Source of the DNA: Bacteroidota bacterium | GTDB taxonomy: Bacteria > Bacteroidota > Ignavibacteria > UBA10030 > UBA8401 | Direction: 5' to 3' | Assembly: GCA_019455105.1 (NCBI GenBank) | Contig: JACFMZ010000003.1 | Span: 4,895 to 67,926, forward strand | DNA: 63,032 nucleotides | Part shown: positions 11,666 through 63,032 of the stretch, piece after piece | Layout of the letters: each line of letters starts with the position of its first letter | Numbering within the stretch: the first letter of the stretch is position 1 | Notes under the pieces: generated by a model | Databases searched by the model: none | Told to the model about the DNA's origin: nothing | What the model saw: only the letters and a program-made list of their open reading frames with translations | Translations under genes and position numbers: made by a program

Positions 11666-11670
11666 AGTTC

Positions 11671-45001: not shown

Positions 45002-45003
45002 TG

Positions 45004-45501
45004 TTATATCTCCAGACTGTCTTTTGCCATTGATTTTGATGCGTTAATTGCGGTAACGTTTGCTTCGTACGAACGCGTTGCGGAAATCATATCCACCATT
45101 TCGGTTACCACATTCACATTCGGCATTTGCACATAGCCTTCTTCGTTGGCATCGGGATGACTCGGATCGTACACCATTTTGAACGGAGAAGCGTCAACAT
45201 CTTCATTCGCTTCAACGCCGCTGGCTAAGGAACCGTTATCAACTCCGCTTTCCGCGGCAAACGAAAAATGATTTTTATTTGTTGCTTCTAATTGAAAAGA
45301 ATTTTTTGTAACCATTGAGGCAAAATCTTTTCCCTGCTGCTCGCTCATGTGAACAACCTTACGAACATACGGTCCGCCTTCTTCGGTGCGTGTTGTCTCG
45401 GCATTGGCAATATTTGACGCAATGGCATTCATTTTTTTTCGCTGCGCCGTAAGCCCTTTTGCGCTGATATTTAATCCCGCAAATATTCGATCAATATTCA
45501 T
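45004..45501 (-). CDS. flgC: flagellar proximal rod protein FlgC
   Basis: 'LNISAKGLTAQRKKMNAIASNIANAETTRT' and 'NVNVVTEMVDMISATRSYEAN'. Confidence 0.95.
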   Translation of the reverse strand: MNIDRIFAGLNISAKGLTAQRKKMNAIASNIANAETTRTEEGGPYVRKVVHMSEQQGKDFASMVTKNSFQLEATNKNHFSFAAESGVDNGSLASGVEANEDVDASPFKMVYDPSHPDANEEGYVQMPNVNVVTEMVDMISATRSYEANVTAINASKSMAKDSLEI

Positions 45502-45920
45502 AATGTCCCCTTAATACTTTTTTCTATTCCCATAAATGTTGAACTGAGCAGCCGCGAAGCATACTTAAACCGGATTTGATTTTTTGCCAGCTCCGCCATT
45601 TCTGTATCAATATCCACATCGTTGATTCCGCTCATCATTTCATTATTATCCGCAGCATTTTTATTTTCTTGAACAATGGAAATTCCATCTTTGCCGGCAA
45701 GACTTTCAGCGCTGGAAAGATGCCCTTTGTTCGTTGTTTCCATTTGCAGCGAAGAACCCTGCATGGTTTGATTCAAAAGATTTTCAAACTCTACGCTTTT
45801 CGATTTATATCCCGGCGTTCCGATATTGGCAATATTCGACGAGGAAACTTTCTGACGAAGCGCATACGCATCCAGCGCTTTTGAAAGCAGCGGAATTTTT
45901 GTTTCTTCAAACATGCTCAT
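45498..45920 (-). CDS. flgB: flagellar proximal rod protein FlgB
   Basis: 'LDAYALRQKVSSSNIANIGTPGYK', C-terminal 'EMAELAKNQIRFKYASRLL'. GGAGAAG Shine-Dalgarno sequence. Confidence 0.93.
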   Translation of the reverse strand: MSMFEETKIPLLSKALDAYALRQKVSSSNIANIGTPGYKSKSVEFENLLNQTMQGSSLQMETTNKGHLSSAESLAGKDGISIVQENKNAADNNEMMSGINDVDIDTEMAELAKNQIRFKYASRLLSSTFMGIEKSIKGTL

Positions 45921-45931
45921 TGTTCTTCTCC

Positions 45932-46075
45932 TTAAATTCCAAGAGGAATATCGTTGAGATCATCGGCAACGGAATAAGATTTTTTCTTTGCAGCAGCATG
46001 TCCGGGGGAAACAAAGGCGCTGAGAATTAGTAACAGCCCCACGGTAACCATTCCTATTGTAATTGATTTTTTCAT
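45932..46075 (-). CDS. possible 47-aa signal-peptide-bearing leader ORF (below the ORF-track size cutoff)
   Basis: My hand translation gives MKKSITIGMVTVGLLLILSAFVSPGHAAAKKKSYSVADDLNDIPLGI*. It lies between the sigma-54 promoter and flgB and ends 11 nt before the flgB ATG. An in-frame ATG also exists at 46081. The Shine-Dalgarno sequence is weak. Confidence 0.35.
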   Translation of the reverse strand: MKKSITIGMVTVGLLLILSAFVSPGHAAAKKKSYSVADDLNDIPLGI

Positions 46076-46100
46076 TGGCATCTCTTTTTTTATTACTTAT

Positions 46101-46116
46101 TGCAATCAAAGTGCCA
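46101..46116 (-). promoter_or_regulatory. sigma-54 (RpoN) -24/-12 promoter of the flgB-led flagellar operon
   Basis: The minus strand reads TGGCAC-TTTGA-TTGCA, a perfect match to TGGCAC-N5-TTGCW. It sits in a 125-bp AT-rich intergenic region, about 25 nt upstream of the first downstream ATG. Confidence 0.65.
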
Positions 46117-46200
46117 AAGATTTTGAAGAATATTTTTGAAAATAGAAGCGAATTTGCAGGTGAGAAGAAATGTTGGTGGTGAATATTAGCCAGATGCTAA

Positions 46201-46470
46201 TTATTCAGCGGCATATTCTAAATAAACGGTTTTCGATTTGCCGCATGAACAAATAAACTCAATACTTTCAATGGTCTCGCCGTTTTTATGAAAACGAACT
46301 TCCGGCTCGCTCTCATGGATATGTTGAATTTCAGGAAAGGTAAATTGTGTTTGTTCCGATGAAGAAGTTTTTAAAATATTTCCCTCAACCACAGAAGTCG
46401 TTACATTTTCTTTGTTTAATGAAGCAAGGTCAACAAATTCAGTGCTGGAGGACTGGCCGTTCTGATTCAT
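46201..46470 (-). CDS. uncharacterised 89-aa protein at the 3' end of the che operon
   Basis: The only ATG consistent with non-overlap logic is at 46470, which overlaps the cheB stop by 32 nt. C-terminal 'IESIEFICSCGKSKTVYLEY'. The upstream part of the tracked ORF lies inside cheB. Confidence 0.4.
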   Translation of the reverse strand: MNQNGQSSSTEFVDLASLNKENVTTSVVEGNILKTSSSEQTQFTFPEIQHIHESEPEVRFHKNGETIESIEFICSCGKSKTVYLEYAAE

Positions 46471-47578
46471 AAGATTTCCCTGTGGTAATTTGATATAACA
46501 CCGAATGCATCTCATCCAGAGGAACAACAGCGTCGGCAATTCCTTCATCCACCACTGCTTTCGGCATTCCGTACACAACGCACGACTCTTCATTTTGTGC
46601 CGCAACATAACCGCCGCGCGCCTTTACTTTTTTCATCCCTTCCAAACCATCTTTTCCCATTCCCGTCATTATCACTCCAAGAAGAGGCGCATTAATTGTT
46701 TCAACAGCGGAGCTCACCATAATATCCACGCTCGGCCGGTATAATGTTTCTGCCGGCTGTTCTGAAATTTTTATGGCAATATCGCCGCCGGATTTTCTAA
46801 AGGTCATGTGCTTGCCGCCCGGGGCAAGAAAGACAAAACCCGGTTCCAAAATATCGTTCTCTTCCGCTTCACGCACCGAAAGAGCCGAGAAAGAATTTAT
46901 TCTTTCCGCCAGTGATTTTGTAAAGCGCGGAGGCATATGCTGAACAATGGCAATACCGAGCGGAAATGATTCCGGAAGTTTCGGAATCATTTGCAACAAA
47001 GCAAACGGTCCGCCGGTAGAAATGCCGAGCACCAAAGCGCGAAAATCTCTCCGCGAAGGAGTGTTTACCATCCGGCTTTGATGCGCTGTTGACGAAGTTT
47101 TTTTTGTTAACTGCGGCAGTTCTAAACTTTTTTTTCTGCTGTTCTTTAAGCGAAGGCGAAGCGCCGCGTTTCTTCCGATGCTTTTTACTTTGGCAATTAA
47201 CTCGCTCCGCTTATTGGTAATGTTCAGCGAAACGTACGAAAGATCTTTTGAAATAAAATCAACGGCGCCCAAGTTTAACGCTTCAATGGTGGCATCGGCT
47301 CCTTCGGTAGTTAGCGAACTGAACATTAACACCGGAAGAGGCATTTCATTCATAATAATTTTCAGCGCCGAAAGCCCGTCCATACCGGGCATTTCAATAT
47401 CCATTGTTACAACGTCGGGACGGAATTCTTTAATTTTTTCAATTCCTTCTTTTCCGTCGCGCGCGGTGGCAACAATTTTTATTTCCGGATCAGATTCAAG
47501 CATCATGGAGATTGATTTCCGCATAAATGCCGAATCGTCAATAATAATTACCGTTACCGGTCTAATCAATGAGTTCAT
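46439..47578 (-). CDS. cheB: chemotaxis methylesterase/deamidase CheB (REC + CheB catalytic domain)
   Basis: 'VIIIDDSAFMRKSI...VTMDIEMPGMDG', 'LGISTGGP', 'GVIMTGMGKDG' are present. Confidence 0.95.
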   Translation of the reverse strand: MNSLIRPVTVIIIDDSAFMRKSISMMLESDPEIKIVATARDGKEGIEKIKEFRPDVVTMDIEMPGMDGLSALKIIMNEMPLPVLMFSSLTTEGADATIEALNLGAVDFISKDLSYVSLNITNKRSELIAKVKSIGRNAALRLRLKNSRKKSLELPQLTKKTSSTAHQSRMVNTPSRRDFRALVLGISTGGPFALLQMIPKLPESFPLGIAIVQHMPPRFTKSLAERINSFSALSVREAEENDILEPGFVFLAPGGKHMTFRKSGGDIAIKISEQPAETLYRPSVDIMVSSAVETINAPLLGVIMTGMGKDGLEGMKKVKARGGYVAAQNEESCVVYGMPKAVVDEGIADAVVPLDEMHSVLYQITTGKSYESERPVLQH

Positions 47579-49379
47579 TGGGCTGCTGATAAAATTCCGG
47601 GGCGGCGGCGGATGTTTTCTTTGCCACTTCCATAAATTGTGCTACATCAATAATTAAGATTACTCTTCCATCACCGAGAATTGTTGAACCGGCAATACAG
47701 GGAATGGCGCCGAGATATTCGCCGAGAGATTTTATCACAACTTCACGCTGCCCGAGAAGCGAATCGACAACAATGCCGAGACGTTCTTCGGCAATACCGA
47801 CAACGACAATATAATCCCACTCAGATTGTTTCTTCTGAATATCAACATTGAAGATAGTATTAAACCGCGCCAGCGGCAGCACCGAATCGCGCAGGCAAAT
47901 CACTTCTCTTCCGTGAATGGTATCAATGTCGCTTTTTCGCAGACGAACAACTTCCAGTACGGAATTTAACGGAAGCGCAAAAACTTCTTTATTCGTTTCC
48001 ACCAGCAGCCCTTGAATAATGGCAAGCGTGAGGGGAAGTTTAATAATAAATTTACTTCCAACGCCGACTTCCGATTCGATATCCACAATGCCTTTAAGTT
48101 TTGAAATGTTTGTTTTAACCACATCCATTCCCACGCCGCGCCCGGAAACATTGGTAACTTTTTCTGCCGTGCTGAAACCGGGAGCAAAGATAAGATTTTG
48201 CGCCTCTTTCTTGCTCATTTCAGCGGCTTGCTGTTCGGTAATTATTCCTTTTTCAATCGCTTTCTTTTTTATTTTTTCCGGATCAATTCCTTTTCCGTCG
48301 TCTTTTATGGAAATAACAATATGGTTTCCTTCGTGCTCGGCGGTAATTTCAATGGTTCCCTTTGCCGGTTTTCCTTTTGCCAGACGCTCTTCTTCGCTTT
48401 CAATTCCATGGTCGGCGGCGTTGCGGAGAATATGAATCAGCGGATCATTAATTTCTTCAATAATGGATTTATCAAGTTCCGTTTCTTCGCCGGACATTTG
48501 CAGATCAATTTCACGAGAAAGCTCGCGGGAAAGATCGCGGACCAGCCGGGGAAGTTTGTTAAACACTTTTGCAATCTGCACCATTCTGGTTTTCATCACT
48601 GCCATTTGAAGTTCAGTAGTAATTAAATCTACCTGCGAACTTGTTTCGGCAAGATCTTTCATCAGCACGTCCCCTTCAAATTTTTCGTTGAGCGTAAAGT
48701 TCAGCTGCGCCAGACGGTTTCTTCCCAACACAAGCTCGCCGACAAGATTCATCAATTCATCAAGGCGTGTTACATCAACACGAATGGTGGATTCAATAGT
48801 ACGGGCGGGCTGATGATGAGCGGAATGAACTTCCTGAGATTCCCGTTCGTGAACGGCTTTTCGAGTCTCATCTTTTTTCTCCGGCTCGTCAACTTCATAC
48901 GCCGACGGCTCCTCCTCCTCTTCCGAATGTATTTCCGGCGGAAGATTCTGCACCGGCTGCTCCTGAGCGGAATCATTTCCCGATGCAATGGCGGAGAGCC
49001 GTGATTTTATTTCTTCAAGTTCCAACGGCGTGCCGTTGCGCTGCTCAATGCGAAGCAGCAGTTCTTTCAACAAATCAAACGCGCGGAACATTACATCCAT
49101 GCGCGCCGGAGTAACATTCAGTTCGCCGTGACGGATTTTATTCATCACATCTTCAAAACTGTGAGCAAGTTCGGTTAACTGCTCGAAGCCTAAAAATGAT
49201 GAGGTTCCTTTTACGGTATGCACCGCGCGAAAAATAACATTATGCAGTTCTTTATCGTCCGGCGTTTGTTCTAACGCTACAAGATCGTTGCCGAGTTTCT
49301 CTAAAATTTCATTGGATTCTACAATGAAGCTGTCGAGAATTTCCGCCATCTCTCCGTCGTATTCTGGAAATTGAGACAT
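47562..49379 (-). CDS. cheA: chemotaxis histidine kinase CheA
   Basis: Hpt 'RAVHTVKGTSSFLGF'. HATPase 'HILRNAADHGIE', 'DDGKGID', 'GRGVGMDVV'. C-terminal CheW-like domain. Confidence 0.96.
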   Translation of the reverse strand: MSQFPEYDGEMAEILDSFIVESNEILEKLGNDLVALEQTPDDKELHNVIFRAVHTVKGTSSFLGFEQLTELAHSFEDVMNKIRHGELNVTPARMDVMFRAFDLLKELLLRIEQRNGTPLELEEIKSRLSAIASGNDSAQEQPVQNLPPEIHSEEEEEPSAYEVDEPEKKDETRKAVHERESQEVHSAHHQPARTIESTIRVDVTRLDELMNLVGELVLGRNRLAQLNFTLNEKFEGDVLMKDLAETSSQVDLITTELQMAVMKTRMVQIAKVFNKLPRLVRDLSRELSREIDLQMSGEETELDKSIIEEINDPLIHILRNAADHGIESEEERLAKGKPAKGTIEITAEHEGNHIVISIKDDGKGIDPEKIKKKAIEKGIITEQQAAEMSKKEAQNLIFAPGFSTAEKVTNVSGRGVGMDVVKTNISKLKGIVDIESEVGVGSKFIIKLPLTLAIIQGLLVETNKEVFALPLNSVLEVVRLRKSDIDTIHGREVICLRDSVLPLARFNTIFNVDIQKKQSEWDYIVVVGIAEERLGIVVDSLLGQREVVIKSLGEYLGAIPCIAGSTILGDGRVILIIDVAQFMEVAKKTSAAAPEFYQQPNELID

Positions 49380-49403
49380 ACTCTGTACTCCGTTTTAACG
49401 CTC

Positions 49404-50111
49404 TTATGGATGTTGTGTGAATTGCGCAATAATTGAATCCGCTTCATCTTGACGTGTTGAATCTTTATTGAAACTGGCATTGCTGTCAAAATGTTTTTGT
49501 CCGTTATCTTCCACATCAATTGATTCTCTGCCGTGATATTTTCCGACAACATTATACAACTGGCGTCTTACGGATTCTATCATATGCCGAACGCCTTCAA
49601 TTTGCTGCGTGGTAATATCCTGCACCTGCAATGCCATGGCAATATTCATGGAAATTTCTCTCACATCGGAAAGATGCTGACATAAATCGCCGATGGTTTT
49701 GCTGTTATCGGTGTGTCCGGCAAGTTCTTCTGCTGCCTTTGCAAAATCCGGAAATGCCGATTGTGTTTCCGCCGGCAGCTTTTTAAATTCTTCAATAAGC
49801 ACAGAAAATTTTTTCTCCCGCTCTTCAACAATATCTTTAATTGAGATTAACTGCTGCTCAACTTTTTCAAAACGCTGCCCGAGTTCATCCAGCAGATTGA
49901 GAATTTCTATGGTAGCGGTTTCCGTTGCCTGTGTAACATTGGTCAATTGCTGCGATGCTTTGGGAATTTTGCTGGAAGTGTGTTCGACCGAAGTTTTTAT
50001 TTCATCCAGCACCGGCATAACTTTGCGCAGCGTTTCCAGCAGCTGCTGCATTCCGGTAATATTTTCAGCTTCCGCATTTTCGGGAAGATCCTGAACGTGT
50101 ACATTTTGCAT
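49404..50111 (-). CDS. CheZ-like CheY-P phosphatase
   Basis: Helical 235-aa protein between cheY and cheA. Contains 'ALQVQDITTQQIEG' (D165-x3-Q169, encoded at 49605-49619), matching the CheZ catalytic 'QDLTGQ' pattern. Confidence 0.6.
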   Translation of the reverse strand: MQNVHVQDLPENAEAENITGMQQLLETLRKVMPVLDEIKTSVEHTSSKIPKASQQLTNVTQATETATIEILNLLDELGQRFEKVEQQLISIKDIVEEREKKFSVLIEEFKKLPAETQSAFPDFAKAAEELAGHTDNSKTIGDLCQHLSDVREISMNIAMALQVQDITTQQIEGVRHMIESVRRQLYNVVGKYHGRESIDVEDNGQKHFDSNASFNKDSTRQDEADSIIAQFTQHP

Positions 50112-50147
50112 AATAGGCCTGTAAAAAATTATTTAAATAAGTTATGC

Positions 50148-50522
50148 TTATGCAGCTTTTAATATTTGGTCAATCTTTTCTTTTAATGCTTGCGGCGTAA
50201 AGGGCTTAATAATATAATTGTTCGCTTTTGCCTGCATTGCTTCAATAACATCCGTTTTGTTGCCGCGCGTTGTTACCATCAGCACGGGAAGCATTCCGTA
50301 CGCATCGGTTGACCGGATTGCCTTCACCAAATCCAGCCCGTTCATTTCAGGCATATTCCAATCCGTAATAACAAAGTTTGGATTTTCTTCCTGAAGCTTC
50401 TGCAGCGCTTCTTTTCCGTCGCCGGCTTCCACCACTGTATCGAAACCGATTACTTTTAATGCGTTGATGACAATGCGGCGCATCGTCTGCGAATCATCCA
50501 CAACCAAAAATTTTACTGACAT
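50148..50522 (-). CDS. cheY: chemotaxis response regulator CheY
   Basis: Start set at ATG 50522 (GAGGAG upstream). 'FLVVDDSQTMRRI...ITDWNMPEMNGLDL...YIIKPF'. Confidence 0.9.
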   Translation of the reverse strand: MSVKFLVVDDSQTMRRIVINALKVIGFDTVVEAGDGKEALQKLQEENPNFVITDWNMPEMNGLDLVKAIRSTDAYGMLPVLMVTTRGNKTDVIEAMQAKANNYIIKPFTPQALKEKIDQILKAA

Positions 50523-50536
50523 AGTCTCCTCAATGT

Positions 50537-50908
50537 TTATTCTGTCCAACTTAAATATTTTGAAACTTCATATTGTACTTTTTCAAGACTGAACGGTTTA
50601 TTCAAATACGAGCGAACTCCAAGGCTGGCTCCGGCGTTTTTTAGGGTTTCATCTTTTAAAGAAGTAAGGATGATGATCGGCAGTTCCTTAAAGTCGGTGC
50701 TTTCACGCAGCGCTTTTACCAATTCCAATCCGTCCATATTCGGCATATTCAAATCGGTAATAAGAAGGTCCACCTGCTCTCTCGGAAGTTTTTCCAAAGC
50801 ATCCATACCGTCTTCTGCCGTTACCACGCGAAATCCCTGCATGGAAAGAGAGACCGAAACAAATTTTCTTACCGTTGAAGAATCATCAACAACAAGTATT
50901 GTATGCAC
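50537..50908 (-). CDS. second single-domain CheY-like response regulator
   Basis: 'ILVVDDSSTVRKF...ITDLNMPNMDGLEL...YLNKPF'. Confidence 0.88.
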   Translation of the reverse strand: MHTILVVDDSSTVRKFVSVSLSMQGFRVVTAEDGMDALEKLPREQVDLLITDLNMPNMDGLELVKALRESTDFKELPIIILTSLKDETLKNAGASLGVRSYLNKPFSLEKVQYEVSKYLSWTE

Positions 50909-50913
50909 TGTTT

Positions 50914-51807
50914 TTACTCCTTTTTATAGGCAATGGCTTTTGGAAAATTTAATATTTTAAAGGCGGAAGATATTCCGTGCAGCGATTCGGCATAGCCGAT
51001 AAAAAGAAATCCCCCTTTATTCAAACCGTCATACAGCTGCGAAACAACCTGAATTTTTGATTTCTGATCGAAATAGATTAACACGTTGCAGCAAAAGACA
51101 ACATCAAAATTCGACATAAGCCGCATGCGGTTCTTATCAAACAGATTGAGATGTTCAAAGCGGACTAATTTTCTTGCCGCATCAACCACGGTAAAGACGC
51201 CGTTATTTTCCGTAAAATACTTTTTCAAATAATAGGGAGAAATATTGCGAATGGAATACTGACGGTATTCTCCTTTTGCGGCAGTTCGCAGCACACCGGG
51301 CGCAATATCTGTTCCTACAATTTCAATGCTGAGAGAAGGATATTTCGGTTTAATTTTTTCTAAGAATATCATCGCCAGTGTATGCGCTTCTTCTCCCGTT
51401 GAACTCGCCGCGCTCCAGACGCGAATTTTTGTTTTTCCTGCCGCAACCAGTTCAGGAATTAATGTTTTTTCAAAAATTTCAAACTGCGGCTCATTGCGGA
51501 AGAAATATGTTTCATTAATAGTAATGGCATCAAAAAGAAATTCGCGTTCTTTTTCTTTTCCGGAAACAGAAAGGATATAGCGCACATAATCTTCGTAGCT
51601 TTCTATTTGCAGCATCTGCAGGCGTTTGGAAATTCTGCTTTCCAAAAGATATTTTTTATTATCCTGAAAATAGATTCCCGTCATCGTATAAATATGGCTG
51701 CGCAGTGCGGTAAACGTCGGCTCTGCCATTGCCTGCACTTTGGACGCAAGAGAAAACGCCGGCACTCCGTTATTCTGCGGTGTGGCTGCTTGCTGCGCTG
51801 AAATCAC
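50914..51807 (-). CDS. cheR: chemotaxis protein methyltransferase CheR
   Basis: 'ITINETYFFRN', 'IRVWSAASSTGEEAHTLAM', 'FDVVFCCNVLIYFD' are present. Confidence 0.95.
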   Translation of the reverse strand: MISAQQAATPQNNGVPAFSLASKVQAMAEPTFTALRSHIYTMTGIYFQDNKKYLLESRISKRLQMLQIESYEDYVRYILSVSGKEKEREFLFDAITINETYFFRNEPQFEIFEKTLIPELVAAGKTKIRVWSAASSTGEEAHTLAMIFLEKIKPKYPSLSIEIVGTDIAPGVLRTAAKGEYRQYSIRNISPYYLKKYFTENNGVFTVVDAARKLVRFEHLNLFDKNRMRLMSNFDVVFCCNVLIYFDQKSKIQVVSQLYDGLNKGGFLFIGYAESLHGISSAFKILNFPKAIAYKKE

Positions 51808-51826
51808 AATACCCTCGTCGTCATTC

Positions 51827-53197
51827 TTATACCATTAAAACCGATTGAACAAATTCTCTAACCATCTCTTCCGGATCATCAAGATACCGCATAAGAAGTT
51901 CTCCGTTGCGCTGATGCGTTGCGTTAGAGGCAAGCTGTAAAAATTCCACCCTGCTCCAGCCGTCCATTTCATTAACTAACGGCACAATGCTTTCAAATGC
52001 TTTTTCTTCGTTGAGGAAAAAAAGCACATCAACAATAATTGAACGCAGTTCGTTATCCGCCGAATGCCAATCCTGAAGAAGAATATCAAACAGAGCATTA
52101 TCTTCGCGGCTCGGCGTGTACGTTTCTGTTTGGGTGCGCTCTTTTAAATGCGGCAAAATTTTTATTAAACTTGTTTTCTTTTCATCATTGGAAAATGAAG
52201 AGTACAGCGGAAATAATTCTATAAACGGAATATTCTGCTGCAGCATAACATTTATAAGATAGGCGTCGATATCGCCGTAGGAACCGAAAAGGCGCACAAC
52301 TTCCGGAAGGATTCTCTTTTTTGTAAGAGCAGTCAGCGCGCGCACTCCGGCAAACACAATCTTTTCATCTTCATCGGACAGTATTTGAATAAAATGCGAC
52401 GTGTGCAGTTCATCAAACGGAAGATGATACCGCTCGGCAAGAATAATGTAGGAATAGATTAATACATGCTGCAGTCTTCCGCTCGTATCATCAATAATTT
52501 TCTCTAATTCCGGAATTGCTTTTTCATTTCCGCACTGCGCTAACGCTTCTACAAGAGCGTAGGCAATAAGCGCATTGTCTCCGTCTCTGTTTTCCAATTC
52601 GCGAAGCATGGCAAGAATAATCATGGAAAGCGACACATCGGCAATTTTTCCGAAGGCTTCGGCAACCATTACCCGCGCGTAGGGATAGCAGACATACGCT
52701 GTTGTTAATTGGGGAATAACACTGCGGTCGCGGATATTTCCCAGCGCTTCAATTGCCGCCACCACAACATTTTCATCCGCATCAAAAAACAAAGGAAGCA
52801 GTGATGAAACAGCTTTGGGAGAGCCGATTAGTCCGATGGTATCAATTGCCAGTTTTTTTACATCCGGATTTTCATGATTCACATAATCAAGCAGCGGCGC
52901 AACAGAATCATCGCCGATTTCTACCAGAAGTTTTGACGCAAGATTGCGCGTTGTAAAATTTGAATCCGTAAGATATTCCACAATGGCGAGCGCCGAAGTT
53001 TTATGCGGAAGCTGAAGAAGCGATCTCGAAGCCGCATCGCGCACTCCCTTATCGGAATCCTGCAGCGCTAATGATAAAACCGCCGACACCATTAAATTAT
53101 TGCTCAGCGATAAATCTTCGGCAGCCTGCCGGCGGCGGCTTTCATCCGCATCGGTCAATAATGTTTGAATGTGTTCTTGAATTGAATTCGGTATCAT
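51827..53197 (-). CDS. HEAT-repeat (PBS-lyase-like) protein
   Basis: Repeated 'D.D..VR..A...L' units (e.g. 'DADESRRRQAAEDL', 'DSDKGVRDAASRSL', 'DADENVVVAAIEALG'). ATGA overlap with the upstream REC gene. Confidence 0.75.
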   Translation of the reverse strand: MIPNSIQEHIQTLLTDADESRRRQAAEDLSLSNNLMVSAVLSLALQDSDKGVRDAASRSLLQLPHKTSALAIVEYLTDSNFTTRNLASKLLVEIGDDSVAPLLDYVNHENPDVKKLAIDTIGLIGSPKAVSSLLPLFFDADENVVVAAIEALGNIRDRSVIPQLTTAYVCYPYARVMVAEAFGKIADVSLSMIILAMLRELENRDGDNALIAYALVEALAQCGNEKAIPELEKIIDDTSGRLQHVLIYSYIILAERYHLPFDELHTSHFIQILSDEDEKIVFAGVRALTALTKKRILPEVVRLFGSYGDIDAYLINVMLQQNIPFIELFPLYSSFSNDEKKTSLIKILPHLKERTQTETYTPSREDNALFDILLQDWHSADNELRSIIVDVLFFLNEEKAFESIVPLVNEMDGWSRVEFLQLASNATHQRNGELLMRYLDDPEEMVREFVQSVLMV

Positions 53198-53571
53198 TTC
53201 TCTGTTTCGTGTTCTAATAACTGCAATAATTTTTCTTCAATTTGTTTTTGCGTAATCGGTTTCAGCAGGTAGCCTGAAACGCCGAGCTGCACAACGCTTC
53301 CCACCGTTTCTTTATCGTTCAGTGCGGACATGACAACAACCGGAAGCGTTTTAAATTCCGGCTTATGACGAATACGTTCCAGCATCGTAATTCCGTTCAT
53401 TACCGGCATCCACAAATCCGTAAAAACTAAATCAGGATTTACTATTTCTACAACGCGAAGACCTTCCACGCCGTCTTTTGCTTCAAACACTTCACATTCT
53501 TTTATCTGAAGAATCATCCGCTTCACCAGCAGACGCTGAGCCGTATCATCCTCAACAACCAGAATTTTCAT
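53194..53571 (-). CDS. single-domain response regulator (REC)
   Basis: Start set at ATG 53571. 'ILVVEDDTAQRLL...FTDLWMPVMNG...YLLKP'. Confidence 0.85.
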   Translation of the reverse strand: MKILVVEDDTAQRLLVKRMILQIKECEVFEAKDGVEGLRVVEIVNPDLVFTDLWMPVMNGITMLERIRHKPEFKTLPVVVMSALNDKETVGSVVQLGVSGYLLKPITQKQIEEKLLQLLEHETEK

Positions 53572-53594
53572 GTTGAGCGCCTTTCTCAATAATA

Positions 53595-53795
53595 TTATTT
53601 CTTATGAATCCGGCGCGGCGAATAATATTTACAATGATAATAATGTAATTCTCCGGCTGAATTCCATGGATGTCCGCATACCCGGCAATGCTCTCCCTTA
53701 TAATCAATAGCATTGAGAAAAACCAAAAAGGGTTTTATTTCGGCATAGGATGTTGAAGTCTGTGCCTGCGGTTTTGCATAAGCTGTAGAACGCAT
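53595..53795 (-). CDS. small Cys/His-rich protein (possible zinc-binding), first ORF of the che operon
   Basis: 66 aa with 'CRVCGHPWNSAGELHYYHC'. Strong Shine-Dalgarno GGGGAGG 6 nt upstream of the ATG. A sigma-70-like promoter lies just upstream. Confidence 0.45.
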   Translation of the reverse strand: MRSTAYAKPQAQTSTSYAEIKPFLVFLNAIDYKGEHCRVCGHPWNSAGELHYYHCKYYSPRRIHKK

Positions 53796-53824
53796 GTGAA
53801 CCTCCCCATTGTGAAAATTATTAA

Positions 53825-53853
53825 TACTATACCATTTTCAGATTTCGTGCCAA
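53825..53853 (-). promoter_or_regulatory. sigma-70-like promoter for the che operon
   Basis: The minus strand reads TTGGCA-N17-TATAGT, with TG 1 nt upstream of the -10. The -10 ends about 30 nt upstream of the ATG at 53795. Confidence 0.4.
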
Positions 53854-53992
53854 AATTTTATTGCTATTTCCTCAATATTTTGTTCGTTTCTATCGCTTCA
53901 TTGCATGTTTCATCAAAGTCGTTGAACAATATTAACCAATTGATAAATATTCTCGCTGGACGGGCTGAGTGCTTCAGTAAAGTAAGGTCGGT

Positions 53993-54385
53993 TTACTTAT
54001 CGGGATCTTTACTGTTCTTCAACCAATCAACTCCAACGCTCTCCCAATTAGGAGTTGAAGATTCATCAACGTAGCGCTCCCATTGATAAATACCGGTCTC
54101 TTGCGCAATGCGTTTAAATTGCATTTTAATAACAGGGTTGGCAAGAATAACTACAGATCGTGTCATTCCGCGCTGTTTATAAAGTTTTTGTCCTTCCTGC
54201 ATAAACTGTTGAGATTCCGGCGAGAGAGGTTTTAAAGAACGCATATCAACAAAAATATGAAAAGTATTCGGCGCTGAAAGAAGAATCTTTTTACTATCTT
54301 CCACCCATTTTTGCATTTCTTTCGGTTCTATAAAATCTCGAAACGCTAATTTAAAACCGTAATCGGTTTTGTCTATTTTATACAT
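53993..54385 (-). CDS. small cytoplasmic protein, possibly STAS/SpoIIAA-like fold
   Basis: 130 aa. The pattern 'FHIFVDMRSLKPLSPESQQFM...RSVVILANPVIKMQFKRIA' resembles STAS-like modules. Tentative. Confidence 0.35.
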   Translation of the reverse strand: MYKIDKTDYGFKLAFRDFIEPKEMQKWVEDSKKILLSAPNTFHIFVDMRSLKPLSPESQQFMQEGQKLYKQRGMTRSVVILANPVIKMQFKRIAQETGIYQWERYVDESSTPNWESVGVDWLKNSKDPDK

Positions 54386-54420
54386 TGCGGCCTCCTTGTA
54401 TTGTATGAATATTGATGATG

Positions 54421-56121
54421 TTAGTTGAGTACTGCTACTTTTCTTTTACCGTTTTTTAAACCATCTATTTTTTCTTTTGTTGTTGAAAGCTGCCGCTCGT
54501 TACTTTGCGTTATTTTTTTATCCGTTTTTTGTTCGAATGTAAACCGGTTAACAACAGCTTTCAAACCGTCGGTTAATCTATTGAGCTGTTCTGCCGCGCC
54601 GGCAATCTGCTGAATCGTGCCCGCGCTTTGATGCGCCACCGTGCTGATGGCTTCAATATTTTTTGCTATATGATCTGCTGTTGATGCCTGCTCCTCGCTG
54701 GATGAAGCAATAGTGACAACCATTTCAGTGGTCTTCTGCGAAACATCAACAATTTCCGTTAATGCGTCTCCTGCTTTTTCAGCAAGAAATATTCCGTTCT
54801 CCACTTCCTTGGTGCCGCTGCTCATTGAGTGAACGGCATTGCACGTATCGTTTTGAATCGTCGTAATCATTGTGCTGATTTCTTTTGTTGCTTTCGTTGT
54901 CCGCTCGGCAAGTTTGCGCACTTCATCAGCCACTACGGCAAAACCGCGTCCGTGTTCGCCGGCGCGGGCGGCTTCAATAGCGGCATTCAGCGCCAGCAGA
55001 TTCGTTTGGTCGGCAATGTCATCAATAACAGAAATAATTTCGCCAATTTGATCGCTGGACGCTCCTAAAGTTTGCACCGTTGCCGTTGATTCATGCACAA
55101 CTTCCGCAATACGTTTCATTCCGGTAATAGTGTTGTTCACCGCCGTACCGCCGGATTCGGCAACCGATTTTGCTTTTTTGGCAATCTCGGCGGAAGATAA
55201 AGCGTTTTGAGAATTTTCCGAAATATTTTTTGCCATTTCATTTATTGCGCCGGCAATTTCTTCCGTCTGGCTGGTCTGCTCTTGAGCGCCTGCCGCCATT
55301 TGTTCCGCTGCTCCGGAAATTTCGTAGGTCGCAACGGTAACTTTTTCAGAAGATTCCTGCACCTGCTTAATCAGCGTGCGCAGCGAGTTCAGCATGGTTT
55401 GATAAGCGCGGGCAAGCACGCCGATTTCATCACCGGAATGGATTTTCTTTTCCAGCATCGGCGTCTGCACAAAACTTAAATCTCCGCTGGAAACCCGCTC
55501 CGACTGCATCGCAATTTCCAATACCGGCAGCACCACAATCCGGCGGACAATAAAACGAATAACGCTGACCACCGCACCGACTGAAGCAATACCAATCAGC
55601 AGTGTTATCCATCGAATTTTTGCTTTCTGCGCCGCTACGCCGTTCAGCGAACCGGAAACGCCGAAGACCGCAACTAAATCTCCTTCTTTCTTATCCGAAA
55701 AAATATCTATCCCCGATTCGTTATGGCAGGAGGAACAGGAGGATTGAATTCTTGCCGGAACAAAAACCGCAAGCAGCTCGGAACTATCTGCTGCAATTTT
55801 TACATCAAGCATATTACGTTTCACATCAGCAGAAAATGTTTTGAACGACTGCGCTTCCGCTTGTTCCAATGCTGAAATGCCCGCCGCCTGTCCGCCGAGA
55901 AACCGGTGAAACGTCCATCCTTTTTCAACAGCATACTCTTCGGCAGCACTGTGCGTCATTGCCGTTGAGGTATGCGCCAGCGTTGCCAGCTGTTCACGAA
56001 AACCCTGCTCGGCTTGCGATGCCTGTTCACCGGCAGAGTAAAACCCCCACAGCAGAAAAACGGCGGCAACAATTATTGCGGGAATTAAAAAGAGCTTTTG
56101 CTGAACCGAAAGTGATTTCAT
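54421..56121 (-). CDS. methyl-accepting chemotaxis protein with a periplasmic CXXCH (heme-c) motif
   Basis: Two TM segments flank a roughly 140-aa periplasmic domain containing 'CSSCH' (55723-55737). HAMP domain. MCP core '[38 protein letters not shown]'. Confidence 0.92.
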
Positions 56122-56148
56122 ACATTCCTCAAAATATTTTTTTCATCA

Positions 56149-57795
56149 TTATTCTTTCTGATCAACTAATCTGCCGACCGCGTCAACAGCTTTTTTGGAT
56201 TTTTGATTTTGCAGCCGCGCCGCAGCAGCTTTTTCCGAAGAATATTTTTCGTCGGTCTGTAAATTAAACTTTGCCAGAAGTTCTTGTAATACCGAAGCCG
56301 AGCGATTTAAATCTTCCGCGGTCCGGGCAATCTGCTGAGTGCCGCTGGCGGCTTCCTGTGTTACGGCGCTGATGGCTTCAACATTTTTACTGATTTGCTC
56401 CGCCGCGTGAGACTGCTCTTCGCTCGCCGCCGCAATTTGCACAATCATCTCGGTAACTTTCTGCGAAACAGAAACAATTTCCTTTAAAGATTTTCCCGCT
56501 TCATCGGCAAGAAGAATTCCTTCGTCCACCTGCTGAATTCCCTTCTGCATCGAATCCACAGCACCGTGCGTATCCGTCTGAATTTTTTTAATCATTCCGG
56601 CAATTTCTTTTGTTGCTTTCGTTGTCCGTTCGGCAAGTTTGCGCACTTCATCCGCCACCACGGCAAAGCCTCTTCCCTGCTCGCCGGCGCGCGCCGCTTC
56701 AATGGCTGCATTTAAAGCAAGAAGATTCGTCTGGTCGGCAATATCATTAATCACGCCGATTATTTCGCCGATTTGTTTGCTCGATCTGCCGAGTTCTTGA
56801 ACTGTTTCCGCCGAAGATTTTACCACTTCAGCAATTCTTTTCATTCCGTGAACGGTTTCATACACAACGGCGCCGCCGGTTTCCGCTGCTTCTTTTGCTT
56901 TTTTTGCCGTCGAAGCCGTATCGCCGGAATTTTTTGAATTGCGCAAAATTGTTTCGGTCATTGATTCTACGGCATGAGCCACTTCGGAAGTCTGTGCGGT
57001 TTGTTCGTGCGCCGCCGCTGCCATCTGTTCTGTGGCGCTGCTGATTTCTTCGCTGGCTTTTATCACGGCGCCGGAAGAAGCGGAAACTTGTTCCAGCGTT
57101 TCCCGAATCTGTCTGACGAATCCGTCGAACGCCCGCTGCAGCTCGCCGACTTCATCTGCCGTTCTGCTGCTGAATGAAGAATTCAAATCAGCATTTCGAA
57201 TTGCCTGTATCACATCAGCAATCGGCTGAATGGTAGATTTCTTGATAATAATTTTTAAAACCACCAGACCGGAAGCGAGAAGAATAATTGTTAACCCAAC
57301 CGACCAGCCGATGGCGCTGTTTCTATGCGCATAGAGTTCGCTGCGCGAAACGGCAACCGAAACAAAACCGGCCGCCTCGCTTCCCGAAGAACGCATATAG
57401 ACGGGAGACATAAAAATTTCAACCGGGTCCCCCTGCGCGGTTTCTGCGGAAAAGGATTTGCCGGAAGTTATTTTTGCAATGGTATCAAGCGTGCTGTTTT
57501 GTATCGGCGTTCCTTTTCCGTACAAACGTTTCCCGTTATTATCATAAAAAGTAACATTGCAAACGTCGGGATCTTCGTTTGCTAATTCTGCGGACTTGGC
57601 AATTAACGAAGTATCCTGCATCAGCACGCCGATCTTTCCCGCCGACGCAAGATTGGCGGCAAGACCAATTCCATTTTTATCAAACTGCTCCAGCGCTACC
57701 CCGCCGATGAAGAGAACATACAATACGCTGAGCGTTACCGTAAGCAAGAGGGCAAGCACGGCAACCGGTGTAAGAATTTTTCCTTCAAGCTTCAT
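56149..57795 (-). CDS. methyl-accepting chemotaxis protein (periplasmic sensor of unknown type)
   Basis: TM segment, roughly 150-aa periplasmic domain, TM segment, HAMP domain, then MCP core '[38 protein letters not shown]'. Confidence 0.92.
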
Positions 57796-57803
57796 ACTTC
57801 CTC

Positions 57804-58355
57804 CTATTTCACAACGTAATCAATGGATGGATTTTCTTCTTTTGGAATTGCCGCGCCGACAAAAGCGGAGATACGCTGATTAACATACGCTTTAATCTTT
57901 CCTTCTTCTTTTGTAATAAAACAGAAGGCGCCCTGCGAAAGATAACTCACATCCGGCACGCACAAGCCGATTTTATCGACAACCGTATTTTCTTTAAGAA
58001 AATCAAATCCGAAGCGAAGCATCATATCATCATCCGCAGAAGGAATGAGAATAATTTGCGCTTTCTTTTCGGAAACTAATTTTTTATAAAATTGCGCAAT
58101 ATCCTGCGGCTTTGTTATCTGCGCAACAAATAACTTCAATCCCTGCTGTGTTGCCGTGCGGGTGATATTGGCTATTTCTTTTTCATTCAGCGTGCTGGAC
58201 ATAACACCCAGCACCTGAAGATCGCTTTTCAGCGATTTTAAAACCGCTACCTGCTGGCCGAAACTGACGGCAGGCTGTGCAACTAAAACATCAGGAAGGC
58301 TTCCAACAAGGATAAGTATGAGGCTTACCAAAAGCAGCATTGAATTCCGTTTCAT
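57804..58355 (-). CDS. small periplasmic protein, single-lobe ABC_sub_bind/YfiR-like (tentative)
   Basis: Signal peptide. An alternating beta-alpha pattern ('LQVLGVMSS...GLKLFVAQI...[11 protein letters not shown]...IGLCVP') resembles one lobe of a periplasmic binding fold. 8-nt gap to the MCP start. Confidence 0.4.
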
Positions 58356-58418
58356 CGTTCACTCCTTTTTAATATTTTGTTACGTTAGTTTATTGCCCTC
58401 ACCGAAACGCTGCATTCC

Positions 58419-59453
58419 CTAAAATCGTGTTTGAATTTCAAAAATTAATTTATCAGGATTTACGGCTCCGCCGGCATAATTAAATTTTTCGTAGTTTACT
58501 CGAAACTGAGCAAACGATAGCTTTGCAAATTCCAAAGAAACACCGGCAGTTATGCGGCTGACTTCATCCAGCGTAACGGCCGTATTCGCATCATATTGTT
58601 CATACCGCACCGCAGGAATAACGCTTTGAATTTCGCTTCCTTCAAAAACAAACGCATAGAGAACGTAAACAAAATACGCGGAAGAGGTTATTGTTCCTGC
58701 CGGAAGCGCTGAGGCGCGCATAGCAAATTCTCCGTCAACAAAAAAATTATCGCATGCCCAGTCAAAACCGAAATCGTAAATTGATACATCGGTCGTTCCG
58801 TTTTTCCCGCCGTAATAGTTTGCCGAAACATTGGCTCCTTTCACCGGCGAAACGGACAGTCTGCCGGCATACGTTGCGCTGCGATCGTCTTCAAGTTTAT
58901 TTTGCCCCGTTCCGTTAAAGATTCCTGCAGTGAATTCGGACGGCACGTTCCCGTTTCCTTTGTAAGAAAGCGAGAATCCGACATCACGCAGTGCCGGCGC
59001 AACGGAGGTTAAGAGCGGACGATTGACAAAATCAAGACTTGCGCCGCCGCGTAAATTATCGGTACTGAACGGAACTTTGAATTGACCAAGCGAGAACGAA
59101 ATATTTTCAACGGGAGTGATTGTGCTGTACGCATCCAGCAGAATCTGCGGATACACAGAAGAAGCGGAGGTGAGAATTTTTTTTCCTGAAAGCGTATCCG
59201 ATGAGGCTGCAAATTTTCCGAGCGGCGCCGCATCAACCAAAAATTTATACGAAGCAAATTGATTAACATTACCTGCAACGCCGACTCTCGCCATTTTTAC
59301 CAAAAACTGCGATTGATGTGTTGAAAAATCCGACTGCTGCCATGTGCGAATGTAGCCGGAAAATTTCGGCGTGGTATTCACTGTTTTTTCCTGCGCGCCG
59401 GCAAAACAAATAGTGAGCGCTGTAAGAAGGAATACCGATTTCCATTTTTTCAT
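58419..59453 (-). CDS. outer-membrane beta-barrel porin-like protein
   Basis: Signal peptide. Alternating amphipathic strands rich in Gly/Tyr/Phe. C-terminal '...IFEIQTRF' with a terminal Phe. Confidence 0.6.
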   Translation of the reverse strand: MKKWKSVFLLTALTICFAGAQEKTVNTTPKFSGYIRTWQQSDFSTHQSQFLVKMARVGVAGNVNQFASYKFLVDAAPLGKFAASSDTLSGKKILTSASSVYPQILLDAYSTITPVENISFSLGQFKVPFSTDNLRGGASLDFVNRPLLTSVAPALRDVGFSLSYKGNGNVPSEFTAGIFNGTGQNKLEDDRSATYAGRLSVSPVKGANVSANYYGGKNGTTDVSIYDFGFDWACDNFFVDGEFAMRASALPAGTITSSAYFVYVLYAFVFEGSEIQSVIPAVRYEQYDANTAVTLDEVSRITAGVSLEFAKLSFAQFRVNYEKFNYAGGAVNPDKLIFEIQTRF

Positions 59454-59509
59454 ATATTTTTCTTTTCCATTTTAAAATTGTGTATGATAATTCTTTCTGA
59501 TGATTTTTT

Positions 59510-61252
59510 TTAATTGGTTTCATATTGAATTTCAGGCTGAGAAGAATATGCTTTGACTCCATTCTTTTCAGCGGTTGCCGTTCGATGAACCGGTTTTGCC
59601 GTTCGCGCTTCGCCGTTCAGTTGAAACTGCGCCAAGAGTTGCTGCAATCCTTCCGTAAGTCTATTTAAATCTTCCGCAGAGCGGGCAATCTGCTGAGTGC
59701 CGCTCGCGCTTTCCTGCGTTACAACGCTGATTCCTTCAACATGTTTGCTGATTTCTTCCGAAGCGCTTGCCTGCTGCGCGCTTGCCGCCGCCACGCTTTC
59801 AATCATTCCGGCAACAGTTAGGGAATTGCTGACGATATTTTCCAGCATTGTTCCGGCTTTCCCCGCCAGCGTAATACCGGCTTCTACTTCCTCTGTTCCT
59901 TTTTCCATTGAAGAAACCGCCTGGGTTGTATCAGTTTGAATCTGCCGGATCATTGAAGCAATTTCTTTTGTCGCTTTGGAAGTCCGCTCCGCTAATTTTC
60001 TTACTTCATCGGCAACAACGGCAAACCCGCGTCCCTGGTCGCCGGCACGCGCCGCTTCTATGGCGGCATTTAACGCCAGCAGATTTGTCTGGTCGGCAAT
60101 TTCATCAATCACATCAATAATTTCTCCGATTTGCTTGCTCGATTCGCCGAGAATTTTTACCTGTGAAGCGGATTGATTGACGACATCGGAAATACTTTTC
60201 ATGCGGCTCACTGTCTGGGTAACAATTTCTCCCCCTTTCAGCGCGGCTTCTTTTGCTTCATGAGCGCCGCTTTCTACATTTCGAATGTTGTCTAACGTTG
60301 CGGTCAGCGTTTTCGTCATTTCTTCAATGGCGGCGGCAACTTCACCTGCCTGCGAACTTTGTTCATGCGCGCCGGCGGCAAGTTCTTCAGTCGAAGAACT
60401 GATTTCCGTGCTGGCGCTCGCTACCGCTGCAGAAGTTTCGGTAACCTGCAGCAGCGCATTTTTAATCTGATCAACAAAACTGTTGAACGCTCTCTGCAAA
60501 TCTCCAATCTCATCGAACCGGTTGGAATGAAACCGGAAATTCAAATCGGCATTCAGCATTTTTACCGCTACTTCTTTTACCGGATTTGCCACCGCGCGGA
60601 TAACCAGAAAACCGATAATTCCTGTTCCCCAAAAAGCAATAAAAGAAATAATCCACATATTGCGCGAAGCTTCATCGCGCGATGTTTCGGCGCTGAGAAA
60701 TTCCTGTTGGGAAACTTCTTCAACCGCTTCGGTTAATTGATCAATAACATCACGCGCTTTTTCAAAAGAAGCGTTCGCTTCACCGAAGGATAATTCTACC
60801 GCCCGCTCTCTGTTCCTCCCCGATTCGAGCAGTGCGGTTATTTCCGTTGATTTTTCTTTCCACTCCTGATACGACGCATCATACAAAGGAAGAAGCGTTT
60901 TTTCTTTTTCTACTTTGGGAAGCGCTTTATATTTTTCCCACCGCTCAAACGCCTGGCGGATATTATCGTTTTGATCTTTTTTGAGATCATTAAATTTTTT
61001 TGTTCCCGGCTGAGCAAAAAATAATGACCGTTCCGCAACCAGCGCCTGCTGCATATCCCTGTCGATTTGCAGAATAAGATCCGTTCCGGGTAAGCGGACA
61101 TTCGTTATCTGTTCGGTGTTTTTATAAATTGAACCGATATCGTTATTTAATATTGTTGCGACCGAAGTAATGCCGATTAACGCAACCAGAATAAGAATTG
61201 TTATTTTTATACTTAACTTTAAATTGTTAAACCACGCCACCGCTGCCTCCAT
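59510..61252 (-). CDS. methyl-accepting chemotaxis protein (4-helix-bundle-type periplasmic sensor)
   Basis: Start set at ATG 61252 ([16 protein letters not shown] + TM); the tracked extension runs into the repeat region. HAMP domain and MCP core '[38 protein letters not shown]'. Confidence 0.9.
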
Positions 61253-61411
61253 TTTTTTGAATATTAATGTATTGTTACTGTGTTGATATTTTTTTGCGCG
61301 CAAAAGAATTTCACAACTCTTCTGCGCAATGGAAAACATAAAGCATATCGAATACTTTGTCATTCCGAATGAAGCCACAAAGTGGCGAGTGAGGAATCTC
61401 ACTCTCGATTA

Positions 61412-61642
61412 CTTTGTCATTCCGTCTACGACTCGTAGAGAGAGCAGCGCGACGAGGAATCTCATTCTCGAATGCTTTGTCATTCCGAGTGTAGCCCGGA
61501 GTGGCAAGCGAGGAATCTCACTCACGAATGCTTTGTCATTCCGAGTGTAGCCCGGAGGGGCAAGCGAGGAATCTCATTCCCGAATATTCATCACTCTTTA
61601 GATTCCTCTCCGGCAAAAAGCGCCGGATTCGGAATGACAGTG
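61412..61642. repeat. copy A of a 231/232-bp direct duplication
   Basis: 61412-61438 equals 61677-61703, and 61445-61642 equals 61711-61908 (198 bp identical). The copies differ only in a 6 vs 7-nt patch. Confidence 0.9.
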
Positions 61643-61676
61643 AATAACCAGTAGCAAAATATTTCACTCTCGAGCC

Positions 61677-61908
61677 CTTTGTCATTCCGTCTACGACTCG
61701 TAGAAAGGAGCAGCGCGACGAGGAATCTCATTCTCGAATGCTTTGTCATTCCGAGTGTAGCCCGGAGTGGCAAGCGAGGAATCTCACTCACGAATGCTTT
61801 GTCATTCCGAGTGTAGCCCGGAGGGGCAAGCGAGGAATCTCATTCCCGAATATTCATCACTCTTTAGATTCCTCTCCGGCAAAAAGCGCCGGATTCGGAA
61901 TGACAGTG
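61677..61908. repeat. copy B of the 231/232-bp direct duplication
   Basis: See copy A. The copies are separated by a 34-bp spacer (61643-61676). Confidence 0.9.
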
Positions 61909-61919
61909 TTTATTTTCTC

Positions 61920-63032
61920 TTAGTAATTTTCCACCAGATGCCCGTTCTCACTCACCGCCTTGCGGGATTTCGGCGCAAAGCTCTTCTGAGTTTTCTTCAC
62001 CGGCTGTGAACCTTTATATTCAGCTCCCCCAAGATTGAACTTCGATAACAATTCCTGCAAGTTCACCGTCAATCGGTTTAAGTCTTCCGCCGTGTGAGCT
62101 ATCTGCTGCGTCCCGCTGGCGCTCTGCTGCGTTACCGTTGAAATAGCTTCCACGTTCTTGCTGATCTGCTCTGCCGCGCTCGACTGCTGCTCGCTTGCCG
62201 CCGCTATCTGCATTACCATATCAGTCAACTGCTGGCTCACTCCCACAATCTCCCGCAGCGAGTCTCCTGCCTTATCCGCAAGCGCTATGCCGTCATTCAC
62301 CTTCTGCGTCCCTTCATTCATCGACTGCACCGCGCCTTTGGTATCTTCCTGTATCTGCTTTATCATTGATGCTATCTCTTTGGTTGCTTTCGTCGTCCGC
62401 TCGGCAAGCTTTCTCACTTCATCGGCAACAACGGCAAAGCCTCTTCCCTGCTCTCCGGCTCGCGCCGCTTCTATTGCCGCATTTAAGGCAAGAAGGTTCG
62501 TCTGGTCGGCTATATCATCAATCACGCTGATAATCTCTCCGATCTGATCGCTTGAGGTGCCGAGCGCTTTTACTGTCTCAGCAGATTTGTTTACTACTTT
62601 TGCTATATCATTCATTCCCTGAACCGTCTCTTTTACAATATTCCCGCCGGCTTCTGCCGCTTCTTTGGCTTTCTTTGCCGTGCCGGCTGTATCATTAGCG
62701 TTCTTGGAATTTTCACTGATGGTTTTGGTCATCTCTTCTACCGCCGTGGCAACTTCTCCTGCCTGTGAGCTTTGTTCCTGCGCACCGGCTGCCATCTGCT
62801 CGGTTGAAGAACTAATCTCTGTGCTGGCGCTCGCTAAGGCGCTGGAGGCTTCGGAAACTTGAAGCAGAGTCTCTTTTATGGATACAACAAACTTATCGAA
62901 CGAGCGCTGCAGATCTCCTATCTCGTCTTTGCGCGCGCTGTTGAACTGCGAGTTTAAGTCCGCATTCTCAATGTTGTTGACGACTTCCTTCACCGGATTG
63001 GCTATGACGCGTGAAATAAAATAACCGAGTCC
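61920..63032 (-). CDS. methyl-accepting chemotaxis protein, C-terminal part (5' end outside window)
   Basis: The frame stays open upstream of the tracked GTG to the window edge (HAMP-like '...[20 protein letters not shown]'). MCP core '[38 protein letters not shown]'. Confidence 0.9.

Follow-up and report, generated by a model that had tools for sequence, protein, structure and literature searches.

A chemoreceptor gene lies on the minus strand of the 63,032-nucleotide stretch of DNA analysed here (the window; contig JACFMZ010000003.1 of assembly GCA_019455105.1, positions 4,895 to 67,926), from an uncultured wastewater bacterium of the Ignavibacteria. The encoded methyl-accepting chemotaxis protein (MCP) very probably carries a periplasmic heme-binding single-Cache domain (sCache_heme), with heme c attached at a CXXCH motif, and works by the mechanism proposed below. 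Most likely, nitric oxide (NO) or redox changes would attract or repel the bacterium through this receptor. MCPs with a periplasmic heme-c sensor have been established biology since 2005-2008 and were systematised in 2026, and the window receptor is a new divergent member of the known sCache_heme family, not a new kind of system. The single che/flagellar supercluster receives input from at least four chemoreceptors, and the assignment gives one of them a likely cofactor and signal class.

The CXXCH motif and its conservation

An earlier reading made from the sequence alone (the sequence-only reading) had reported a CXXCH motif in the periplasmic loop of this MCP. Reading the minus strand from 55737 to 55723 gives TGT TCC TCC TGC CAT, and translation of the open reading frame (ORF) gives Cys129-Ser-Ser-Cys-His133, which confirms the motif (Table 1). 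The protein is an MCP by domain content and topology, with PF00015 preceded by HAMP and with two transmembrane (TM) helices. Because there are two hydrophobic segments, the HAMP and MCPsignal domains follow TM2, and the flanking charges fit the positive-inside rule (K2 and K9 ahead of TM1; R190, R194, and R195 after TM2), the protein fits a standard two-TM MCP whose residues ~31-170 would form the extracytoplasmic loop. Hydropathy and the order of the Pfam domains thus put the motif outside the cytoplasm, where the earlier reading had placed it. C129 and C132 are the sole cysteines in the translated loop, and a motif search found no CXXCH in any other plausible gene within the window.

Table 1 Features of the heme-sensor MCP gene and the downstream che genes, in window coordinates.
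Feature	Coordinates	Strand	Basis
MCP gene, 566 aa: TM1, periplasmic heme-c Cache-type sensor (predicted), TM2, HAMP, MCP signalling domain	54421..56121	minus	ORF and Pfam
TM1, residues ~10-30	56032..56094	minus	Kyte-Doolittle 19-residue windows, up to 2.46
Periplasmic sensor domain, residues ~31-170, predicted divergent sCache_heme (DUF3365/Tll0287-like, PF11845)	55612..56031	minus	Profile, homologues, and model
CXXCH, C129-S-S-C132-H133, putative heme-c attachment motif	55723..55737	minus	Sequence
M55-T-H57, at the α1-α2 kink of the N-terminal helices, possible source of the distal (sixth) heme ligand	55951..55959	minus	Conservation and spacing
R73, end of β1, F-H-R motif, possible heme-propionate contact	55903..55905	minus	Conservation
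TM2, residues ~171-192	55546..55611	minus	Hydropathy up to 2.43
HAMP, residues 192-248	55378..55548	minus	Pfam PF00672, 32.7 bits, E 9.3e-8
MCP signalling domain, residues 312-495	54637..55188	minus	Pfam PF00015, 180.3 bits, E 3.8e-53
che genes downstream of the heme MCP: response regulator, HEAT-repeat protein, CheR, two CheY-like, CheZ, CheA, CheB	46439..53589	minus	Pfam

The motif is conserved throughout the relatives of the sensor domain. An exhaustive HMMER search, which covered 1.84 billion representative proteins, found homologues in 46 clusters at E≤1e-3, with 37 at E≤1e-10. These homologues are nearly all 500-830 residues long, carry the matching domain at residues ~30-175, and are mostly two-TM MCPs, with some histidine kinases. 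CXXCH is kept in 44 of the 45 true homologues, and the lone sequence that lacks it (P0047) looks frameshifted at the motif. One further match (P0040, 2817 residues with 17 repeats) was dropped as a false match to a low-complexity repeat. An alignment of 39 sensor domains (A1) was extended to 64 with 25 loci from species-representative genomes, which were retrieved with a 7-sequence alignment of the domain. C129, C132, H133, H57, G147, and F153 are kept in all 64 aligned domains, and M55, R73, and A60 in 63, with identity to the window protein falling as low as ~27%. The closest of the relatives at genome loci (46-53% identity in the sensor domain) come from metagenome-assembled genomes (MAGs) labelled Ignavibacteriae, Ignavibacteriales, or Bacteroidota, and the remoter ones (34-43%) mainly from Holophagaceae. 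A word-indexed protein search was nearly blind to the family, returning one match for the domain, three for the profile, and none for a Tll0287 fragment.

Could the motif instead be a functionless chance occurrence or relic in a classical small-molecule-binding Cache or four-helix domain? From the Cys and His frequencies of the window's own long ORFs (0.41% and 1.6%), CXXCH is expected 3.5e-5 times per 140-residue domain and 0.005 times over all 18.7 k residues of these ORFs, a figure hard to square with a motif that is invariant down to the most distant aligned relatives. Transcribed strain variants also leave the motif intact: an RNA contig covering 55412-56235 spans it and has seven substitutions elsewhere but none within it. 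The conservation data effectively refute this explanation.

The heme sensor domain is a portable module, since it is found on MCPs, on histidine kinases (P0035 and P0044), and on MCPs with extra C-terminal domains. These extras are hemerythrin in two relatives (P0005 and P0010) and a CZB zinc-binding domain in another (P0016). At one relative's locus (L001), free hemerythrin genes lie beside MCP genes at 7742-8143 and 11758-12165. That hemerythrin domains or genes accompany heme-sensor MCPs suggests that two different kinds of iron-based sensor for gas or redox state have been paired repeatedly. In three Holophagaceae MAGs (L014, L017, and L019), two or three heme-sensor receptor paralogues stand in tandem at ~2400-6450 in locus coordinates, with tblastn matches at 2419-2928, 4191-4685, and 5929-6444.

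Family assignment and predicted fold

The sequence family around the sensor domain connects to PF11845 (Tll0287-like, formerly DUF3365), which has a gathering score of 24.1 bits. PF11845 matches 37 of the 39 family members at E≤1, with a best E of 2.1e-10, and 8 of 15 relatives scanned at full length exceed the cut-off (P0022, 38.0 bits; P0028, 34.8; P0027, 31.0; P0002, 28.5; P0044, 27.9; P0035, 25.3; P0009, 25.2; P0031, 24.2). Among them is the closest relative of the window protein, P0002, which is 51% identical to it across the whole domain. In an hhalign comparison, in which a 76-residue fragment of Tll0287 (residues 73-148) served as target in place of the canonical DUF3365 alignment, the family profile aligned over 72 columns with CXXCH in register (probability 77%, E 1.9e-5). 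According to a 2026 preprint, the PF11845 family has 5,000-20,000 members, CXXCH is conserved in 99% of them, and the fold is reclassified as Cache (PMC12889525). Heme c has been established experimentally in Tll0287, GSU0582, GSU0935, and two Pseudomonas proteins (PMC12889525; PMC8396549).

An AlphaFold2 model of the sensor domain, built on A1, has a predicted local distance difference test score (pLDDT) of 92.2 and a predicted template modelling score (pTM) of 0.85. Its elements run from a long N-terminal helix through a second helix, β1, a helix, β2, β3, a five-residue helix, a loop, and β4 to a C-terminal helix that leads into TM2. The five-residue helix is exactly C-S-S-C-H, at positions 102-106 in domain numbering, between β3 (87-97) and β4 (122-131), and M55-x-H57 sits at the break between the two N-terminal helices (28-30). 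In sCache_heme, a Cache core carries CXXCH in an insertion between β3 and β4 (PMC12889525), and the order of elements in the model matches this description. When the model was compared with the Protein Data Bank (PDB) by Foldseek, GSU0935 (3b42) took the first two ranks (E 2.7e-3 and 9e-3, probability 0.85-0.97), and Cache domains came next, those of PctC, a formate sensor, CitA, and DcuS. GSU0935 and GSU0582 of Geobacter sulfurreducens (3B42 and 3B47) are assigned to DUF3365/sCache_heme (PMC12889525) and share the architecture of the window protein, with a TM helix, a ~135-residue periplasmic domain containing one CXXCH, a second TM helix, HAMP, and an MCP signalling domain. They differ from it in that GSU0935 is ~16% identical in structural alignment and has no detectable match in sequence. 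The appeal of the sequence-only reading to heme-c sensor families and to the two Geobacter proteins as precedents is borne out by the PF11845 matches of the relatives and by GSU0935 as the best structural match.

Several results weigh against the assignment. The window protein itself stays under the PF11845 cut-off, with 15.4 bits at full length and, when the domain is scored in isolation, 20.3 bits (E 7.8e-4). Searches of PDB sequences with the single sequence and with the family profile gave no significant match; the profile reached E 0.14 for 5b82_A (Tll0287) and E 1.5 for 3b42_A (GSU0935), and also matched cytochrome c segments, solely around CXXCH. The Foldseek E values lie at ~1e-3 to 1e-2, TM-scores to 3b42 are 0.33-0.39, and 5B82 is outside the top 50. 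In the subfamily, an invariant His and Met replace the Cys of Tll0287, with T53 of the window protein at the axial Cys position, and the hhalign alignment shows no counterpart to the RNPxN stretch of Tll0287. Because of these replacements and the missing stretch, the ligand chemistry of the subfamily may differ from that of every characterised member. Finally, ORF and Pfam scans of the window found neither a gene for cytochrome c maturation nor a further c-type cytochrome. In further searches, phmmer with the sensor domain alone had no match to PDB sequences at E≤10, phmmer with the relative P0022 gave spurious matches only, and no NCBIfam model matches the domain.

The low TM-scores to 3b42 may arise because the N-terminal helices are domain-swapped in the dimer of the crystal, which PMC8396549 describes. 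The loci nearest to that of the receptor come from Ignavibacteriales/Bacteroidota MAGs. In Ignavibacterium album, caa3 and cbb3 oxidases, NrfAH, and a tetraheme NO reductase (CytS) are encoded (PMC3362086), and MAGs of Ignavibacteria encode 18-20 multiheme cytochromes (PMC7399161); these c-type cytochromes would indirectly support a cytochrome c maturation system in the host. Since relatives pass the PF11845 threshold while the window protein falls short of it, the domain is best described as a divergent sCache_heme member by transitive homology and predicted fold, not by its own Pfam score. The profile search proposed along with the sequence-only reading therefore comes out divided, with the DUF3365/Tll0287-like family matched through the relatives but not by the window protein's own score. 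There appears to be a sizeable heme-Cache clade at or below the PF11845 threshold, whose members standard annotation would present as MCPs with the sensor domain unassigned; for the window protein, HAMP and MCPsignal are the sole entries in precomputed Pfam lists.

The sub-threshold score, together with an invariant extra His and Met that could bind a metal, would also fit a domain with no heme, in which CXXC is a periplasmic thiol/disulfide switch or joins H133 and H57 in a metal site (Zn, Cu, or Fe) of an otherwise cofactor-free Cache domain. This is very improbable: the full C-x-x-C-H spacing, His included, is invariant in 64 of 64 domains, the relatives that pass PF11845 belong to a family with experimentally established heme c (PMC12889525; PMC8396549), the model puts the motif in the same structural insertion, and the family profile matches the CXXCH segments of cytochromes c.

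Heme ligation and the likely signal

In the mechanism we propose for the heme-binding receptor, the domain would be exported by the Sec pathway, after which the cytochrome c maturation machinery would attach heme covalently through thioether bonds to C129 and C132. H133 would be the proximal axial ligand of the iron, and a labile ligand from M55-x-H57, where the N-terminal helices running on from TM1 are kinked, would fill the sixth position. R73 might, speculatively, touch a heme propionate. Binding of a diatomic gas, most likely NO, and/or reduction or oxidation of the iron would exchange the distal ligand and shift the helices that flank the domain and continue into TM1 and TM2. The signal would then pass through TM2 and HAMP to the signalling tip, which would modulate the CheA encoded just downstream and, through it, flagellar rotation.

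M55 or H57 is proposed as the labile sixth ligand because of the invariance of the M-x-H element, its position at the helix kink, its spacing to H133, and the hhalign register. M55 and H57 lie 76-78 residues ahead of H133, and the matching spacing is 77 residues in Tll0287 (Cys68-His145) and 84 in GSU0935 (Met60-His144) (PMC12889525; PMC8396549). In the hhalign register, Cys68 of Tll0287 falls 2-4 residues upstream of M55-x-H57, and Met60 of GSU0935 comes, comparably, from the N-terminal helices. The invariant M-x-H, in contrast, belongs to the subfamily of the window protein and distinguishes it from GSU0935 and GSU0582. Being specific to the clade and invariant, M-x-H may mark ligation chemistry unlike that of the characterised members, and it offers a concrete mutagenesis target for distal-ligand chemistry.

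Tll0287 of Thermosynechococcus (5B82), the founder of PF11845, belongs to the same domain family and binds heme c through Cys68 and the proximal His145 (PMC12889525), but is a stand-alone soluble protein with a redox-type role, whereas the window protein is a chemoreceptor in the membrane. In GSU0582 and GSU0935, the proximal ligand of heme c is His143/144 and the distal one is water or Met60; NO, and CO in the reduced state, bind by displacement of Met60 (PMC8396549). The sCache_heme-HAMP receptor of Pseudomonas azotoformans (PMC12889525; bioRxiv 10.64898/2026.05.25.727664) resembles the window protein in having two TM helices, a cytoplasmic HAMP, and a periplasmic sCache_heme without the axial Cys, and serves as the experimental model for signalling-fused members. 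This TM-HAMP-linked domain binds NO tightly, with a koff of 6e-4 s-1, and forms no stable O2 complex (PMC12889525). It differs in that it stops after HAMP and works with a separate kinase, whereas the window receptor has its own MCP signalling domain that would act on CheA. NO or another diatomic gas is the leading candidate for the signal, at somewhat less than an even chance. Redox potential, and thus energy taxis, is a weaker contender, a signal of some other kind is unlikely, and O2 is less likely again.

The redox alternative keeps the architecture and the covalent heme but takes periplasmic or quinone-pool-linked redox potential, not a gas, as the input, so that binding or release of M55 or H57 on heme reduction would by itself switch the receptor. 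GSU0582 and GSU0935 set a precedent, as they change from high-spin when oxidised to low-spin when reduced, through binding of Met60 (PMC8396549). Another comes from DcrA of Desulfovibrio vulgaris, an MCP with covalent periplasmic heme c for which redox or O2 sensing has been proposed (PMC8396549); DcrA is likened to the window receptor by concept only and has an additional cytoplasmic PAS domain. The invariant M-x-H would suggest a hexacoordinate heme, which is typical of redox proteins, and the relatives are concentrated in Ignavibacteriales and Holophagaceae, which are reportedly rich in multiheme cytochromes and porin-cytochrome complexes (PMC7399161). However, in the only direct comparison the stand-alone sCache_heme members behaved like redox proteins while the signalling-fused member was a selective NO binder (PMC12889525). 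Sensing of gas and of redox state are also not mutually exclusive. We consider exclusive redox sensing possible but clearly less than probable. The redox or energy-taxis input predicted by the sequence-only reading thus survives as one option and not the sole one, since signalling-fused members point to NO (PMC12889525).

A more specific variant is that the clade of ~46 clusters forms a distinct sCache_heme subclass, in which a hexacoordinate His/His or His/Met heme is tuned to periplasmic redox potential and not to NO. The clade is set apart by the invariant M-x-H at the helix kink, the near-invariant R73, the lack of an axial Cys and of RNPxN, and the borderline PF11845 score. We regard this variant as doubtful; if true, it would give metal-respiring Ignavibacteriales and Holophagaceae energy taxis towards electron acceptors or electrodes. 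Ignavibacteriales-like organisms live beside denitrifiers and anammox bacteria, amid NO and steep redox gradients, and a heme-c receptor would be a plausible means of positioning themselves there.

Occurrence and the chemotaxis neighbourhood

An identical protein is encoded on 5 public contigs, and the exact gene is present in wastewater, sludge, and bioreactor metagenomes as well as in three metatranscriptome runs. The latter support, but do not prove, transcription of the receptor gene in situ, as metatranscriptomes can contain DNA. One RNA run (X16) contains a contig with a 1-nucleotide insertion after 55173, inside the MCP gene, and another contig that joins 59498 back to 56305. The joint was rejected as biology and judged an assembly chimera between paralogous MCP genes; for both it and the insertion, the likeliest origin is misassembly between paralogous MCP signalling regions or else strain variation.

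The heme-sensor gene is one of four consecutive minus-strand MCP genes (54421-56121; 56149-57795; 59510-61402, with a 4HB/TarH sensor; and 61920-62993, truncated where the window ends). The che set of Table 1, which is complete, follows immediately downstream on this strand. The sequence-only reading had noted an adjacent che system, and the set is presumed to be the output pathway of the receptor. Within it, CheR, the two CheY-like proteins, CheZ, CheA, and CheB span 46439-51807. CheA (47562-49379) contains a CheW-like P5 domain, but the ORFs scanned at 45000-63032, which did not include every small one, yielded no separate CheW gene. Beyond the che set comes a complete set of flagellar genes, among them those for FlgB/C, FliM, FliP, FliR, FlhB, FlhA, FlhF, FlgG/H/I/K, a sigma factor resembling FliA, and two MotAB pairs. 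A comparable single large cluster of flagellar and chemotaxis genes is known from Ignavibacterium album (PMC3362086). An Ignavibacteriales contig (L007) keeps the order of a 183-residue protein, a second MCP, the heme MCP, the response regulator, the HEAT protein, and CheR, with its CheR 67% identical to that of the window.

The che operon opens with the gene for the CheY-like response regulator (53194-53589), which shares 4 nucleotides with that for the 456-residue HEAT/PBS-lyase-repeat protein (51827-53197) on the minus strand. The pair is conserved on L007, at 53% and 42% identity. Between the response regulator and the heme MCP, 36 nucleotides downstream of the latter, a minus-strand ORF of 130 residues (53993-54385) has no Pfam or NCBIfam match; its homologues among the fetched loci are confined to contigs of the same organism (L027 and L028), and it appears orphan-like. 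On the other side, a 183-residue protein (57804-58355, minus) has an N-terminal hydrophobic segment, is probably exported, and is weakly similar to ABC substrate-binding proteins (ABC_sub_bind, TrpX SBP). The MCP directly downstream of it (56149-57795) has a ~135-residue periplasmic domain with no Pfam or NCBIfam match. The two genes occur together in an Ignavibacteriales MAG (L007, 3701-4786) and on a Joint Genome Institute metagenome contig (L001, 1578-3755), and may form a binding-protein-dependent chemoreceptor with an undescribed sensor domain.

The two MotA/MotB stator pairs lie at 9339-13180 on the minus strand, one with MotB at 9339-10109 and MotA at 10113-10976, the other with MotB at 11671-12408 and MotA at 12386-13180. 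FliW separates the pairs, and a response regulator-HD (HD_5) protein is encoded at 8168-9355. The two stator sets may serve two ion specificities or load regimes.

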